From an uncultured virus (IMG/VR IMGVR_UViG_3300034946_000506) (Duplodnaviria; Heunggongvirae; Uroviricota; Caudoviricetes): a stretch of 20,000 bases of DNA. The translations under genes and the position numbers were made by a program. The notes beneath the pieces are model-generated. The model was not told where the DNA came from and ran no database searches. It was given only the letters and a program-made list of their open reading frames with translations. How positions within the stretch are numbered: position 1 is the stretch's first letter; each line of letters begins with the position of its first letter. Shown one piece after another: positions 1 through 5,099 of the stretch. The DNA lies in IMG/VR virus record IMGVR_UViG_3300034946_000506. The stretch is one strand, 5' to 3'.

Positions 1-1019
1 AATTCGACCTTAATGTGGTCTTTATCAAGGTCAGTCTCTACAGCATCAACATAAGTATCTAATAATTCACCTGTATCTTCTAGAGATACTTTAGAATCTT
101 CAACGCTTTCACCTAGATATTCTTCAAAGCTTTCAGCAATTTTAAGTTCATACGTATTAATACTTTGTAGTCTATCAACAAATCTATCAAACATGTATAG
201 ATCACTTTTATTTAAAACAATCAACTTAATAAACTTGTGTTCAAATTCAGATACATCAATATCATTATAATCAGTTTTAGTATCATCATAGATTATTTTT
301 TTAAATATAGTAATAGGATTACGAACCGGAATAACTTCTCTAGTTTCGGTATCTAAGATATGGAAATACTTAGGATCATCACAATCAGACCAAGTAAATT
401 CCATTTGACCACCTAGGTAATGAACATTCCCTTGACTTGATTTAGTATGAAAATGACCTGTTAAAACAGTTTCAAATCTAGAAAATATATCAGCATTCAT
501 ACCATGTGGATTGGTAATACCAGCCATTAATTCAAAACCTTTTAATTCAAGATGTGCACCAAGAATAGAAGCTTTACACGACATAGCCCACTTAGTGTAT
601 TCTTCATAATTGGCATTATTAATCCATGGTATAACACCAACTTTACAACCATCATAATCAAGAACAGTAGGTTTCATTATGATGTTTATATTTGAAGTAA
701 AGTAGCCGAGTAATTCCTTGAGTGAACATAATTCATTCGTATTCTTGAAATATACGTCGTGGTTCCCTGGTATAATGTCCATTGTGATCCCCATATCACG
801 CATAGGCTCAAGAAAATGCTTACGATTCGCGTTGAGGGCTTTGAAGTTAACGAACTTTCGGTGTTCATAATAATCACCTAAGTGTAATATGTTAGTTATA
901 TTATGTTCTTTAAGATACGGAAAAAAGATTTCTTCGTAAAATCTACCCTGATAATTTAAAAATATATCAGAAGAATTTCTTACACCACAATGTGTATCAT
1001 TTAATATTGCTACTTTCAT
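1..1019 (-). CDS. gp47: Recombination endonuclease subunit, T4 gp47-like (SbcD/Mre11 metallophosphoesterase); 3' end runs off the window
   Basis: Absent from the ORF track because it has no stop in the window. Manual translation from ATG at 1019 gives MKVAILNDTHCGVRNSSDIF...LHLGDYYEHRK...IIPGNHDVYFKN..., showing the DxH, GD and GNHD motifs, with a GHFH motif near 450-460. It follows gp55 as in marine T4-like phages. Confidence 0.93.
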   Translation of the reverse strand, partial: MKVAILNDTHCGVRNSSDIFLNYQGRFYEEIFFPYLKEHNITNILHLGDYYEHRKFVNFKALNANRKHFLEPMRDMGITMDIIPGNHDVYFKNTNELCSLKELLGYFTSNINIIMKPTVLDYDGCKVGVIPWINNANYEEYTKWAMSCKASILGAHLELKGFELMAGITNPHGMNADIFSRFETVLTGHFHTKSSQGNVHYLGGQMEFTWSDCDDPKYFHILDTETREVIPVRNPITIFKKIIYDDTKTDYNDIDVSEFEHKFIKLIVLNKSDLYMFDRFVDRLQSINTYELKIAESFEEYLGESVEDSKVSLEDTGELLDTYVDAVETDLDKDHIKVE

Positions 1020-1021
1020 AA

Positions 1022-1597
1022 TTATACCATAAATAATTCTAGTTTTTCTTTTTCTTTTTCTATCTTAGCAAACTCTTTGATCTTTGCATCTTTGGTTCTG
1101 ATCTGATCTATTCTGCTTCTTAATGTATCTACGTATGCCATAGTTTGTTGAGCACCTGAATCATCCATACCCATAGCAGCAAAATCTTCAATACCCATTT
1201 TTTCAATGAATTTAAACTTAATATCTTGTTGCTTCTTCTCTTTGGTTATACGCCTAATAAAAGCAAAATAACAAATCTGAGTAAAATATGAAAATGCATT
1301 AGGATTACCAGTACGTGTAGCAGTTTCTATCTTATAGTTATTAATTGCTCTTAAACAGTTTTCTACACCATCCATAACCATTTCTTCACGATAAGTATAC
1401 CGAACAAAGTTCGGTCTGTGAGACAGTCCTTCAGATATTTTCATGAAACAAGTAGCAATATAATTAGTAACTTTAGGTACTTCTACTTCAGCTTCTCTAG
1501 CAGCATTTGCTGTTCGAACATACTCAACAACTGCAAGGGAAAACTCCTTGTTATTCACATAATGTGGTTTAGCTTTTGGTTTAATTTTTTCAGTCAT
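1022..1597 (-). CDS. gp55: Late-transcription sigma factor, T4 gp55-like
   Basis: Motifs HYVNNKEF, LSHRPNFVRYTYREEMVMDGVENCL and NPNAFSYFTQICYFAFIRRI are characteristic of gp55. AGGAG Shine-Dalgarno at 1604-1608. Confidence 0.96.
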   Translation of the reverse strand: MTEKIKPKAKPHYVNNKEFSLAVVEYVRTANAAREAEVEVPKVTNYIATCFMKISEGLSHRPNFVRYTYREEMVMDGVENCLRAINNYKIETATRTGNPNAFSYFTQICYFAFIRRITKEKKQQDIKFKFIEKMGIEDFAAMGMDDSGAQQTMAYVDTLRSRIDQIRTKDAKIKEFAKIEKEKEKLELFMV

Positions 1598-1622
1598 ATA
1601 TATCTCCTAAAATAATATATCT

Positions 1623-1652
1623 ATTATATCACAGTTTACTGCAAAAGTAAAC
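1623..1652 (-). promoter_or_regulatory. Sigma70-type (T4 early-like) promoter for gp55/gp47
   Basis: Minus strand reads G-TTTACT-N17-TATAAT with an extended TG (TGTGATATAAT), and an A/T-rich UP-like tract lies upstream at 1653-1690. Confidence 0.85.
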
Positions 1653-1696
1653 AATTATTTTTAATTAATTTATTTTCAATTTATTTCACTCTGGCC

Positions 1697-1726
1697 GTTT
1701 ACATTCAGTGAGAAATGTGATATAAT
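1697..1726 (+). promoter_or_regulatory. Divergent sigma70-type promoter facing antisense into the Sm-like gene and uvsW
   Basis: Plus strand reads G-TTTACA(1698-1703)-N17-TATAAT(1721-1726) with TGTGATATAAT, the same architecture as the gp55 promoter. No credible plus-strand ORF lies downstream. Confidence 0.75.
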
Positions 1727-1764
1727 ATAGATACTGCCGGGGAGGTAAGGGGTATACTATATTA

Positions 1765-2142
1765 TTAATGTATTGTAGTACTCGATTCATCGGTGGGAAA
1801 GATATCTTCTTTTAGTTCGTACTCTTCAGCTTCATATTCAAGATCATCGAATGCTGGAAATTCTTTAGAATCATCTTGTAATGAATATCTTACGTAGGAT
1901 TCTTTTGTCTCTGTTATTACTGGAGTATGATTGATGACAAACCTTTTCATTATCTTAAATACTTTACTATCAGAGAAAGGAAACCAATCGACAAATGTAT
2001 ACACTCCAGAGAGTGAGATCCTCACGGCCGCAGGACGTTCAACAATAAAAGATTTATCATTTGAACTTTGAACATAACAAATTATATCTTCACCGCTCGT
2101 AAGCTTGAAGTGTCTAATATCTACTTCTTTTATAGTTTCCAT
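1765..2142 (-). CDS. Sm-like (Hfq/LSm-fold) putative RNA-binding protein with acidic C-terminal tail
   Basis: N-terminal IRHFKLTSGEDIIC...WFPFSD pattern resembles, from memory, the phage Sm-like family of marine T4-like/cyanophages. It lies between uvsW and gp55. C-terminal tail DDLEYEAEEYELKED is acidic. Confidence 0.6.
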   Translation of the reverse strand: METIKEVDIRHFKLTSGEDIICYVQSSNDKSFIVERPAAVRISLSGVYTFVDWFPFSDSKVFKIMKRFVINHTPVITETKESYVRYSLQDDSKEFPAFDDLEYEAEEYELKEDIFPTDESSTTIH

Positions 2143-2147
2143 TTATA

Positions 2148-2155
2148 TATTTATA
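2148..2155 (-). promoter_or_regulatory. T4 late promoter (TATAAATA) overlapping the uvsW stop codon
   Basis: Exact TATAAATA, followed by 5 nt and then the ATG at 2142. Confidence 0.75.
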
Positions 2156-3659
2156 TCCTTATATCGTGTACTTTGTAATCGAATTTTTCTCTGCTGTATA
2201 TTCTGATTCTTTCTGCCGCATGTAATAACGTATAGTTTTTCTTGCTTTTCCAATGTAAATCATCTGCAATATCAAACACCTTAGTATTCATACCATCAGA
2301 TGATTTTCTTAAACCTCTTCCGATACTTTGTAAGACTCTGATTTGTGACTTACTAGGTGATGCAAAGACAATATTATGTAAACGCTTAATATTAATACCT
2401 GTAGAGAAAGTGCCCATGCTAGCCACAATAATCGCGTTATCTTGTTTTTCTGTGATTGCTCGTATCTCTTCCCGCGTGTCCACATCGGTTTCACCTGAGA
2501 CATAAAATAACCTCCTAGTATTTCTTGGTAATTCTTCAAATTTCTTCTGTAATATATCATGTAATGGTTTACCATGTTTTTCAACAAACTGAAACAGTAT
2601 AAGTGTATTACCATCTTGATCCATAGCTAAATTTGATATAAAATTATTCCTAGGTCCATACTTTACAATAAAATCTATTTCATCTTGGTATTTCATCTTA
2701 GATACCAATTTACAATATTCATCGCTATACTTTAATAACAATACAAATATATCTAATTGTGCTAACGAATTTTCTTCAATTAACTTCTTAGTAGTTGTAA
2801 CTTTATAAACTGGACCAAATAAACCTTCTAATACTAATTGATGTGTTTGTGTTCCATCTAAAGTTCCAGTAGTTCCAATTCTATATTCAGCATTTGCACA
2901 CTTTTCTAAGATAGACGTAAGTGACTTAGCTTTAAAATTATGTGCTTCATCACCAATAACCATACCAAAATCTTGGAACCAATTACTTTGTAATTTATAT
3001 ATTGATTGCCAGGTAGTGATTATGATCCGTTCTTTAATATTGTACTTTTCTTTTCCTGCATATATCTTATGACAATTCTCTTGACTGTTCCATTCGTCTT
3101 TCTTTGAATAATCACCAAAATCTGAATACATTTGTTCGACTAAAGAAGTTGTTGGCACTATTAGTAATACACTTTTATCGTATATATCTAAATAGTATCT
3201 AATTGCTAGATATATGATTAAGCTCTTACCTGATGCCGTAGGGCTCAATAATAAAGCCTTTTTATCTGTCAGAGTGCGCGAGAGTGCATCCAACTGATAG
3301 TGCCTGGGGGATATATCATCCCCATTCACGCTGAGTGATATAGTCTTAAGGAAGCTTTCTATGTCATGCAATTCCTCAGTATCAGGCCTTCCAAACGTCG
3401 AATTGTCCTCAATAATCAATTCATAGTCCCTAGCTAGGGCAAATTCCTTCAGATACTTAAACAAACCACCATATATTACCTTCTTTCTAAGGTCAAATAG
3501 GCGTATTTTGCCATCCCACATCCTATTTTTGTAAGCTGGCATAAATTTATAACCCGGAACAAAGAAACAGAAGTGCTCTGTCAATTCCATCTCTATCCCT
3601 GGTTCCGTAGCTAAACTTAAGAAGACTTCATTCTTCTTTTTAACAATAATTTGTTCCAT
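2151..3659 (-). CDS. uvsW: UvsW DNA/RNA-DNA helicase (SF2)
   Basis: Walker A SPTASGKS, DEAH, TGT and QSIGRGLR motifs, plus N-terminal FMPAYKNRMWDGKIRLF. Start overlaps the uvsY stop (TAATG). Confidence 0.96.
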   Translation of the reverse strand: MEQIIVKKKNEVFLSLATEPGIEMELTEHFCFFVPGYKFMPAYKNRMWDGKIRLFDLRKKVIYGGLFKYLKEFALARDYELIIEDNSTFGRPDTEELHDIESFLKTISLSVNGDDISPRHYQLDALSRTLTDKKALLLSPTASGKSLIIYLAIRYYLDIYDKSVLLIVPTTSLVEQMYSDFGDYSKKDEWNSQENCHKIYAGKEKYNIKERIIITTWQSIYKLQSNWFQDFGMVIGDEAHNFKAKSLTSILEKCANAEYRIGTTGTLDGTQTHQLVLEGLFGPVYKVTTTKKLIEENSLAQLDIFVLLLKYSDEYCKLVSKMKYQDEIDFIVKYGPRNNFISNLAMDQDGNTLILFQFVEKHGKPLHDILQKKFEELPRNTRRLFYVSGETDVDTREEIRAITEKQDNAIIVASMGTFSTGINIKRLHNIVFASPSKSQIRVLQSIGRGLRKSSDGMNTKVFDIADDLHWKSKKNYTLLHAAERIRIYSREKFDYKVHDIRI

Positions 3660-4105
3660 TACATCCCGCTAGTAAATTTATTCCATTCAATAATATTTTT
3701 AATATTTTGGTGACGCCATTTAACATTCTCTAAAATTTCTTTTAATGTATCAATGAGCTCTTGCGTATAATGCATCTTAGCTTGATGTTCTTGTATTAAT
3801 GGATCTGCATCGTACCATTTATCCATATCGCCTTTAAGTACTGTAAGACCATTCAATGGATCATAGGGCCATCCTTTTGAGTCCATTTCCATTTGAGTTA
3901 GTTTACCATTATAATGCATAAACTTATCTCGTAATAATACCTTAAATTCAAGATCTAATTTTCTAAATCTAAGTTTATTTATCGAGTATAGTTCTAAGTA
4001 CTTCGAATGAAGTTTTGCTGAGTCTCTAGCGGATTGGTCTAATTGAAGTTCATCAATAATAGAATCTTTTTTCCACATCTCAAGTATTGTTTCTAGGTTA
4101 TTCAT
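3659..4105 (-). CDS. uvsY: UvsY recombination mediator
   Basis: 148 aa with WKKDSIID...KLHSKYL and IKNIIEWNKFTSG; adjacent to uvsW. Confidence 0.92.
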   Translation of the reverse strand: MNNLETILEMWKKDSIIDELQLDQSARDSAKLHSKYLELYSINKLRFRKLDLEFKVLLRDKFMHYNGKLTQMEMDSKGWPYDPLNGLTVLKGDMDKWYDADPLIQEHQAKMHYTQELIDTLKEILENVKWRHQNIKNIIEWNKFTSGM

Positions 4106-4152
4106 AATGTATCCAGTAATGTATATTCTAATGTATATTCTAATATATATTT
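4105..4152. repeat. Four tandem 12-bp repeats in the uvsY leader
   Basis: taatgtatccag (4105-4116) / taatgtatattc (4117-4128) / taatgtatattc (4129-4140) / taatatatattt (4141-4152). Confidence 0.85.
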
Positions 4153-4159
4153 ATTTATA
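4152..4159 (-). promoter_or_regulatory. T4 late promoter upstream of uvsY
   Basis: Exact TATAAATA on the minus strand. Confidence 0.75.
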
Positions 4160-5070: not shown

Positions 5071-5099
5071 AAAAAAAGGGACCCCGAAGAGTCCCTTTT
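5071..5099 (-). terminator. Rho-independent terminator after gp23 with C(UUCG)G tetraloop
   Basis: Minus strand AAAAGGGACTC-TTCG-GGGTCCC-TTTTTTT. Confidence 0.93.

Follow-up and report, generated by a model that had tools for sequence, protein, structure and literature searches.

The DNA analysed here, a stretch of 20,000 nucleotides (nt) from an uncultured virus (IMG/VR record IMGVR_UViG_3300034946_000506; in the following the window), has the affinity of a marine T4-like myovirus, with all long open reading frames (ORFs) on the minus strand. At positions 1598-1764, between the late sigma factor gene gp55 and a gene encoding a Sm-like (LSm) protein, it carries two early promoters back to back. 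The minus copy serves gp55. As all long ORFs lie on the minus strand, the plus copy is without a gene to drive, which agrees with its description as an orphan in an earlier interpretation made from the letters alone (in the following the sequence-only reading). Among the explanations weighed below, we favour, tentatively, that the plus element makes a stabilised, non-coding early antisense RNA which would gate the late uvsY-uvsW-LSm operon. From its sequence, the element would be classed as a phage early antisense transcription unit, having the promoter arrangement of an early cis-antisense RNA, with an early-class promoter on the strand opposite late genes and without an ORF of its own. The promoter, its orientation, its conservation and uniqueness on its strand, the anatomy of the leader and the absence of a conserved ORF can be read from the DNA itself. 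The plus element appears as a complete early expression cassette without a gene, consisting of a near-consensus host sigma70 promoter, a hairpin leader and a purine tract resembling a Shine-Dalgarno (SD) sequence.

Back-to-back promoters between gp55 and the LSm gene

The pattern GTTTAC-N14-20-TATAAT matches exactly twice in the 20 kb, both times with an 18-nt spacer, at 1623-1652 on the minus and at 1697-1726 on the plus strand. The chance expectation is 0.07 matches, and two or more matches were obtained in none of 200 shuffles, so that the proposal of twin promoters of the same architecture diverging from a shared A+T-rich tract is well founded. Both copies have an extended -10 element, TGTGATATAAT, i.e., TGnTATAAT. 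Moreover, the plus copy is the top generic sigma70 site of the window (TTTACA, 17 nt, TATAAT, 11/12, TG present), and only the plus and the minus copy bear the TG among the 60 generic sigma70 sites listed. The generic scan of the window as a whole is not enriched, giving 75 sites versus 80.5 ± 9.8 in shuffles. The elements of the locus are the following.

1623..1652, minus strand: early sigma70-type promoter of gp55 (GTTTAC, TGnTATAAT); the same word recurs on the gene strand of relatives
1653..1696, no strand: A+T-rich spacer common to both promoters, probable UP-element region (85.7% A+T in the window)
1697..1726, plus strand: orphan early sigma70-type promoter, opposed to all genes (top sigma70 match, one of the two pattern matches)
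1733..1752, plus strand: predicted 5' end of the antisense RNA, with a small hairpin (UGCC at 1735-1738, loop GGGGA, GGUA at 1744-1747) inside a C-then-G/purine tract
1753..1757, plus strand: TATAC word at a fixed distance from the -10

The two -35 hexamers are thus about 44 bp apart, with A+T-rich DNA between them (1653-1696). Across 61 relatives, the A+T content of this spacer has a mean of 80.8% and exceeds the locus mean by at least 8 points in 52 of them. The gp55 leader, TATAAT-AGATATATTATTTTAGGAGATATATATG, is laid out like other early leaders. In the other direction, the plus-strand ATG at 1768 opens just 15 codons, and the plus promoter faces antisense DNA only, i.e., the LSm gene followed by uvsW and uvsY, an orientation in agreement with the predicted direction of the transcript, antisense to the LSm gene and uvsW. 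A terminator-like site between the LSm gene and gp55 was not found in the window.

Besides, a perfect inverted repeat of 6 bp in the window (GTTTAC-TGCAAAA-GTAAAC at 1634-1652) includes the -35 of the gp55 promoter as one of its arms, and GTAAAC-TGTGATATAAT recurs in several other early promoters of the comparison record G001. In the related loci L008, L009 and L014, a C-run and a G-run (CCCCTA...TAGGGGG) flank the A+T-rich DNA between the promoters and could pair into a hairpin across it; the window is without these runs.

Conservation and uniqueness of the plus promoter

For collecting related loci, IMG/VR was scanned with gp55 in a protein-guided manner, resulting in 589 confirmed stretches of which the best 80 loci were kept. 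A strict rule, requiring a backward sigma70-type promoter and then a purine/G tract within 450 nt, was applied to loci with at least 250 nt upstream of gp55 and was passed by 59 of 76, in which the promoter adjoins the stop codon of the LSm gene. Hence, the conservation of plus promoter and G tract in relatives, which had been named as a check of the sequence-only reading, is corroborated. The 17 failures could be sorted by reading the sequences: L032, L052, L054, L057-L059, L062, L068, L077, L079 and L080 have a backward promoter with a variant -10 or a weaker tract, the backward promoter lies beyond an inserted gene in L067, L070 and L071 and probably likewise in L073 (350 nt upstream), L075 is without a backward promoter, and L056 is doubtful.

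A back-to-back pair with TTGACA as -35 hexamers is also present in C48C1, HTVC008M, P-TIM68, P-SSM2, S-SM1 and S-RIM2. In the cyanophages P-TIM68, P-SSM2, S-SM1 and S-RIM2, both -35 hexamers overlap in one palindrome (CTTGACAAG and similar), and among relatives the distance between the promoters ranges from such overlap up to about 45 bp. The promoter hexamers are kept across relatives and the spacer is free to vary; therefore, the element looks like a working promoter. It is short and sharply defined, and common to a group reaching from phages with TTTACA/TGTACA as -35 to the TTGACA cyanophages.

Uniqueness was assessed in the nearest records, G001-G003, and in the complete named genome of C48C1. 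G001 is the nearest of the comparison records and has 60% of the window's sampled words in common. By DNA, the nearest named relatives are Phage C48C1, Pelagibacter phage HTVC008M, Methylophilales phages and cyanophages, as found in a distant-mode search reflecting coding similarity only; megablast of the window against phages gave no match. The promoter word TKTAC-N14-16-TGNTATAAT, for which a control pattern had 0 matches, occurs in forward and reverse orientation 6 and 1 times in G001, 16 and 1 times in G002, and 9 and 1 times in G003. In both G001 and G002, the lone reverse copy is the orphan element, and a second copy of the latter was not found in either record. Coding in G002 is almost one-stranded (103 versus 11 ORFs of at least 100 aa), and its antisense strand holds just two G-rich purine 13-mers, one of them being the orphan element. 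The complete genome of C48C1 shows 18 forward and 5 reverse copies of TTGAC-N17-19-TATAAT, with one reverse copy representing the element.

In four loci, a gene of 140-150 aa with a HxGH motif is placed between the LSm gene and gp55, and in three of them (L067, L070 and L071) the promoter is still found at the LSm stop codon. Consequently, its association is with the LSm/uvsW end rather than with the gp55 promoter. The inserted genes (L067, 3586-4014; L070, 3547-3969; L071, 2178-2630; L075, 1641-2093) have the N-terminal motif ...SAFDL(L/F)HAGH..., by which their product looks like a nucleotidyltransferase of the cytidylyltransferase type.

Leader of the predicted antisense RNA

Deduced from the -10, transcription is predicted to start about 7 nt past this element (at about 1733), giving ACUGCCGGGGAGGUAAGGGG. 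For comparison, leaders were stacked on the end of the -10, yielding 63 distinct sequences (67 of 84 passed the rule, including L073 at another site before a real gene). In this stack, columns +8 to +13 are 20-58% C, and purines make up 73-96% of columns +15 to +26 (G 44-74%, C 0-12%). A TATAC-like word (TAYAY/GTAC) starts 25-30 nt past the -10 in 48 of the 62 distinct elements, at +26 to +28 in 42 of them, whereas the stop codon of the LSm gene begins variably, at +29 to +45. Hence, tract and TATAC keep their place relative to the promoter rather than relative to the neighbouring gene. An interpretation of TATAC as second promoter or sigma-dependent pause was rejected, as the last base of the hexamer is unconserved and a -35 at the right distance is missing.

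The same word also precedes the ATG of real early genes in relatives. In G003, the other reverse promoter reads TATAAT-TAATAGAGT...GAGGGAAGG-TATAC-T-ATG, with the ATG opening a real reverse-strand gene of 121 aa with a HExxH motif and PHROG matches. This gene (G003, 24830-25195, corresponding to L096, 831-1196, minus strand) encodes the motif HEMVH and matches phrog_16532 and phrog_10499, and its promoter and leader resemble a paralogue of the orphan cassette with equal spacing. Early leaders elsewhere in G001 and G002 show a short AGGAG, with the start at +23 to +33, and TATACTATG recurs among them. The orphan tract pairs with the anti-SD sequence even more strongly than 15 real leaders do (mean -9.4 versus -6.1 kcal/mol). 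The spacing from tract to ATG/GTG, however, is 2-22 nt, and with only 19 of 58 orphan leaders having it within the 4-12 nt of an SD sequence placed for a start codon, such placement is not a property of the orphan leaders; in real early leaders, 11 of 15 have a spacing within 4-9 nt. In its composition, the G tract resembles part of an early-gene-type leader with an over-strong SD sequence and is probably better read in this way.

Since hairpin arms do not fall into common columns of the MAFFT alignment (A2), hairpins were assessed sequence by sequence and by shuffle tests instead. A hairpin of at least 3 bp is possible in 42 of 53 distinct leaders, in the segment holding the G tract, and the stems show compensation (AUCC/GGAU, AACC/GGUU, UGUC/GACA, UUGGC/GCCAG and UCUCC/GGAGA). 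In several stems U-G pairs are needed, which can form in the plus-sense RNA only, and the more stable fold is the plus-sense one in 42 of 58 leaders and the minus-sense one in 13, with 3 ties. A 5'-terminal hairpin beside a ribosome-binding tract is a known recipe for a long-lived bacterial RNA. Further downstream, a weak hairpin is found in the window at 1797-1813, ending 8 nt before position 1821. The covariance models of Rfam 15 gave nothing at the locus and just two weak matches elsewhere in the window (E 0.39 and 0.81).

After the leader, 60 of the 62 elements have an ATG or GTG, the reverse complement of the last His codon of the LSm protein; C48C1 has ATT. This terminal His is preceded by I, L, V, F or Y. 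A varied hydrophobic residue before a conserved His points to selection on the LSm protein, by which the ATG/GTG is explained. The plus-strand frame from this triplet has between 1 and 90 codons, with the start immediately followed by a stop in 9 of the 62 elements, and a conserved plus-strand ORF or peptide after the leader was not found in any consistent form among them. A plus-strand peptide was rejected as a candidate because of this frame length, the immediate stops and the spacing of 2-22 nt to the SD-like tract.

Predicted target operon and LSm protein

The genes around the promoters are all encoded on the minus strand.

3-1019, minus strand: gp47
1022..1597, minus strand: gp55, late sigma factor gene (phrog_234, late sigma transcription factor, E 2.7e-50), served by the minus promoter
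1765..2142, minus strand: gene of the Sm/LSm-fold protein (125 aa), whose 3' end is the first target of the predicted antisense transcript
2151..3659, minus strand: uvsW helicase gene (Pfam UvsW_N, ResIII, DEAD and Helicase_C; phrog_16)
3659..4105, minus strand: uvsY recombination mediator gene (phrog_231, E 6.8e-34), first in an apparent late operon
4152..4159, minus strand: T4-type late promoter box TATAAATA, 46 nt upstream of the uvsY start
beyond uvsY in the gene list, minus strand: tail-tube, major-head, scaffold and protease genes (window annotation)

Exact T4-type late boxes, TATAAATA, occur 11 times in the window versus 3.49 expected, a number reached in 1 of 200 shuffles, and 9 of them are on the gene strand. 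With one of these boxes upstream of uvsY, the uvsY-uvsW-LSm genes look like a late operon, as uvsW is late in T4. Another exact TATAAATA (2148-2155, minus strand) is located between the SD sequence (AAGGA) and the ATG of the LSm gene, overlapping the uvsW stop codon. A late start at this box would yield a nearly leaderless LSm mRNA; the box may be due to chance in A+T-rich DNA. The strongest terminator-like hairpin of the window, with 11 pairs (AAAAGGGACTC-TTCG-GGGTCCCTTTT, then a T run; 5074-5099, minus strand), is positioned between the major-head and tail-tube genes.

The sequence-only reading had called the 125-aa neighbour Sm-like, and this assignment holds by profile, model and structure comparison. 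A profile of 18 homologues matches PDB 3BY7 (E 0.00099), an Sm/LSm-like protein from a marine metagenome. In the AlphaFold model, the core has a pLDDT above 90 and the acidic tail is disordered, and the top Foldseek match is again 3by7_A (E 1.3e-5, TM 0.90 on target, rmsd 1.3 Å), followed by spliceosomal and archaeal Sm/LSm proteins. According to the model, the protein has the Sm/LSm fold, with an Sm-type bent beta-sheet core. It thus has the same fold as 3BY7 but shares only about 23% identity with it and has in addition a disordered acidic tail of about 35 residues ending in Thr-Ile-His. This hydrophobic-His end (TIH in the window) is conserved, with T123 and H125 being invariant in the 18 homologues and the last codon encoding His in 60 of 62 relatives. 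From these sequences, the C-terminus looks like a docking motif for some partner.

Evidence from RNA libraries

A run search gave two RNA libraries with small shares (X1 and X2) and one run of unlabelled kind (X3), which were compared over positions 1000-3000. From the marine metatranscriptome X2, a 157-nt contig covers 1695-1821 with 0 differences at a depth of 8.4; it carries no strand, start or end information. The contig is self-closing, as its last 30 letters equal the first 30, joining 1821 to 1695, and its flanks were not recovered from X2. This unit of about 127 nt is the sole part of the 2-kb stretch recovered without differences from X2, the other X2 pieces stemming from other organisms. 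Pieces from X1 were obtained only at 1070-1308 and 2769-3000, and the lack of cover elsewhere is uninformative. Possible sources of the self-closing contig are a variant phage in which the stretch is duplicated in tandem, a small RNA abundant enough for template switching to occur on it, or an RNA circle; as support for an early antisense RNA, the contig is a weak hint.

Proposed role and alternative explanations

If the plus element acts as an early antisense RNA, host RNA polymerase would, early in infection, initiate in both directions from the A+T-rich tract common to the promoters, with the minus promoter making the gp55-gp47 mRNA and the plus promoter making a non-coding RNA that runs antisense into the 3' end of the uvsY-uvsW-LSm operon. 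This RNA would be protected from decay by its 5'-proximal hairpin, probably together with 30S binding to the purine tract. Pairing with the operon mRNA as well as head-on polymerase collisions would hold down LSm and UvsW for as long as the sigma70 promoters are active. Once transcription has shifted to the late mode directed by gp55, the antisense promoter would fade, and the TATAAATA promoter of the operon would drive its expression. In the ocean, marine T4-like phages (cyanophages and pelagiphages among them) rank with the most abundant viruses, and the element represents one concrete place bearing on both the timing of uvsW and the start of replication. If a regulatory antisense RNA is indeed made, the whole family would have an early gate dedicated to a late operon.

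Several observations weigh against this proposal. Start site, timing, length and stability of the RNA as well as its effect on uvsW and LSm are all inferred, and a plain antisense role leaves the retention of a strong SD mimic unexplained. The hairpin is weak, with a mean of -2.8 versus -1.6 kcal/mol in shuffles (mean z -0.90); just 16 of 53 leaders fold better than 90% of the shuffles made from them, and 11 of 53 are without a hairpin. Folds of the whole 89-127 nt (1695-1821 on both strands, 1733-1830) are no better than shuffles (z -0.5 to -0.95). A conserved plus-strand terminator was not found, terminator-like sites being scattered over 22 of 59 loci; a control stretch gave 10 of 57, and the opposite strand 2 of 59. 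L075, one of the insertion loci, has lost the backward promoter. Finally, the X2 contig closes on itself and begins 38 nt upstream of the predicted start, and therefore none of the models proposed here explains it.

The sequence-only reading had regarded the site as a promoter-primed origin of replication. In this case, the G-rich 5' part of the RNA would stay on the C-rich template as an R-loop, be processed to a primer near TATAC and start the leading strand, and late UvsW would remove the R-loop. We consider this unlikely, and equally doubtful appears the broader idea that the cassette is the conserved single transcript-primed origin of marine T4-like phages (Kyanoviridae and pelagiphage-like relatives), with a polypurine RNA primer near TATAC and head-on to uvsW; if true, it would be the first origin located in this phage family. 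The idea gains from a strong pre-late promoter without gene combined with a conserved, nearly C-free purine/G tract whose distance from the start is fixed. A further point in its favour is the stability of hybrids between purine-rich RNA and pyrimidine DNA, and a G-tract-driven R-loop may form at the element. There is a parallel in position as well, as the oriF primer transcript of T4, starting from the uvsY promoter, runs opposite uvsW toward the uvsW 3' end (T4 annotation). Moreover, the element occurs once per genome stretch examined, which would fit the single origin predicted for Syn9 as reported in a review (PMC2984593), a match by number. The T4 origin facts quoted in the sequence-only reading agree with the account of Kreuzer and Brister (PMC3016281), according to which T4 origin R-loops need no specific sequence and are unwound by UvsW, itself expressed from a late promoter.

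Against an origin speaks that an A+T-rich element downstream of the promoter is not conserved. The predicted A+T-rich stretch after the G tract is present in the window (70% at +28 to +77 versus 64.5% for the window), but in relatives this segment is at 66.7% versus a locus mean of 65.7% and is raised by at least 8 points in only 9 of 61. The first 20 transcribed bases (+7 to +27) are the most G+C-rich, with 41.2% A+T, and the A+T-rich tract is upstream, between the promoters. Likewise, much of the G tract can pair in the hairpin, and the identical leader layout serves a real gene in G003. A GC-skew inflection at the site was not observed in the window, in 113 kb of G002 (where cumulative skew is monotonic from end to end) or in complete C48C1. 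As skew follows the coding strand in one-strand genomes, a silent skew is weak evidence against an origin; T4-type phages may show no replication skew at all, and skew is not a defining feature of an origin. Of the sequence-only reading, the twin promoters, the orphan plus copy with its antisense direction and the conservation of promoter and G tract hold; the tests made here added nothing in favour of an origin.

Alternatively, the promoter itself and not its RNA might be at work, either tuning the gp55 promoter by competition for polymerase or upstream contacts or by supercoiling coupling, or acting as a head-on roadblock to read-through from the late operon into gp55. The overlap of the -35 hexamers in one palindrome means that the two promoters of cyanophages cannot be fully independent; in the window a single A+T-rich tract lies upstream of both, and the lack of a terminator-like site between LSm and gp55 is in line with a roadblock. 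Such a role is nevertheless improbable, as in three of the four insertion loci the backward promoter is found with LSm, away from the gp55 promoter, the inter-promoter distance varies from overlap to about 45 bp, and the conserved transcribed leader is left unexplained. A short RNA acting in trans or with a protein, whose leader would be a putative partner of the Sm-like protein or a 30S decoy via the SD mimic, is judged quite unlikely. The element always abuts the Sm/LSm-fold gene, its pairing with the anti-SD sequence exceeds that of real leaders by the values given above, and the unit of about 127 nt was recovered from one RNA library, with the weak window hairpin ending 8 nt before its end at 1821. 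In a bolder form of this reading, leader RNA and adjacent Sm-like protein would constitute a phage-borne Hfq-like riboregulation pair. However, a conserved terminator or 3' end and an Rfam match are missing, and the X2 contig has neither strand nor true ends.

Very unlikely, finally, is a translated mini-ORF, or the fossil of a lost early gene of the reverse strand, in which the ATG/GTG over the LSm stop codon would be a real start. The presence of this triplet in 60 of 62 distinct elements, the normal SD-to-start spacing in the shortest forms, and the look-alike leader driving the real 121-aa reverse-strand gene of G003 could be taken as support. Yet, the ORF has anything from 1 to 90 codons with 9 of 62 being start-stop, the SD spacing extends over 2-22 nt, C48C1 has ATT, cyanophage LSm genes end differently, and the triplet is accounted for by the conserved hydrophobic-His end of LSm. 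In addition, a fossil gene is hard to reconcile with conservation across pelagiphage-like and cyanophage lineages.

Comparison with known systems

With the T4 origins oriF (ori uvsY) and oriG, the element has in common a pre-late promoter and a transcript that is not needed for a gene at the spot and is aimed at the uvsW 3' end. UvsW is late in T4 (PMC3016281), and here a late box is found upstream of the uvsY-uvsW operon. As described in the same review (PMC3016281), however, oriF and oriG have a MotA-dependent middle promoter (MotA box at -30) and a downstream A+T-rich unwinding element, and the oriF transcript is also the uvsY mRNA. By contrast, the promoter described here is of early sigma70 type with a -35 of GTTTACA (TTGACA in relatives), the downstream DNA is G+C-rich and then average, and there is no gene. 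Hence, among the features of a T4-type origin, a pre-late promoter is seen in the sequence, and the MotA middle mode and the downstream unwinding element are not.

Related in kind to the favoured antisense RNA are the early antisense RNAs against late genes of PAK_P3 and PAK_P4, which are proposed to damp late genes until the right time and are conserved between these diverged relatives (PMC5563952). They are described there as numerous (17 in PAK_P4), lying inside structural genes and found by RNA-seq (PMC5563952). Unlike these, the present element is known from sequence and stands alone between genes, as one cassette of consensus promoter and conserved leader. CfrI of cyanophage S-PM2 has been called in a review the first antisense RNA reported in T4-like phages (PMC2984593), and is likewise a non-coding antisense RNA in a T4-like marine phage. 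It differs in being located at psbA and a homing endonuclease gene, in having about 225 nt and in being co-expressed with its targets, and is unrelated in place and sequence to the gap between gp55 and LSm. In our literature searches, an antisense start or backward promoter beside gp55 was not found for cyanophages; the start-site and genome studies of Syn9 were outside their coverage, and a prior description is possible.

Regarding the leader, the 5' hairpin of the ompA type and the STAB-SD of Bacillus cryIIIA stabilise protein-coding mRNAs. Such leaders likewise combine a 5'-end hairpin with an SD-like tract not placed for a start codon, but they precede coding regions, and none follows the orphan leader. 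In T4, early transcription of the strand opposite late genes by host polymerase is known as 'anti-late' RNA (no confirming paper was found) and is described as read-through from early units. To our knowledge, a dedicated conserved promoter without gene has not been assigned to it, and in this respect the orphan element, as a candidate for such a dedicated promoter, is distinct from the T4 case.

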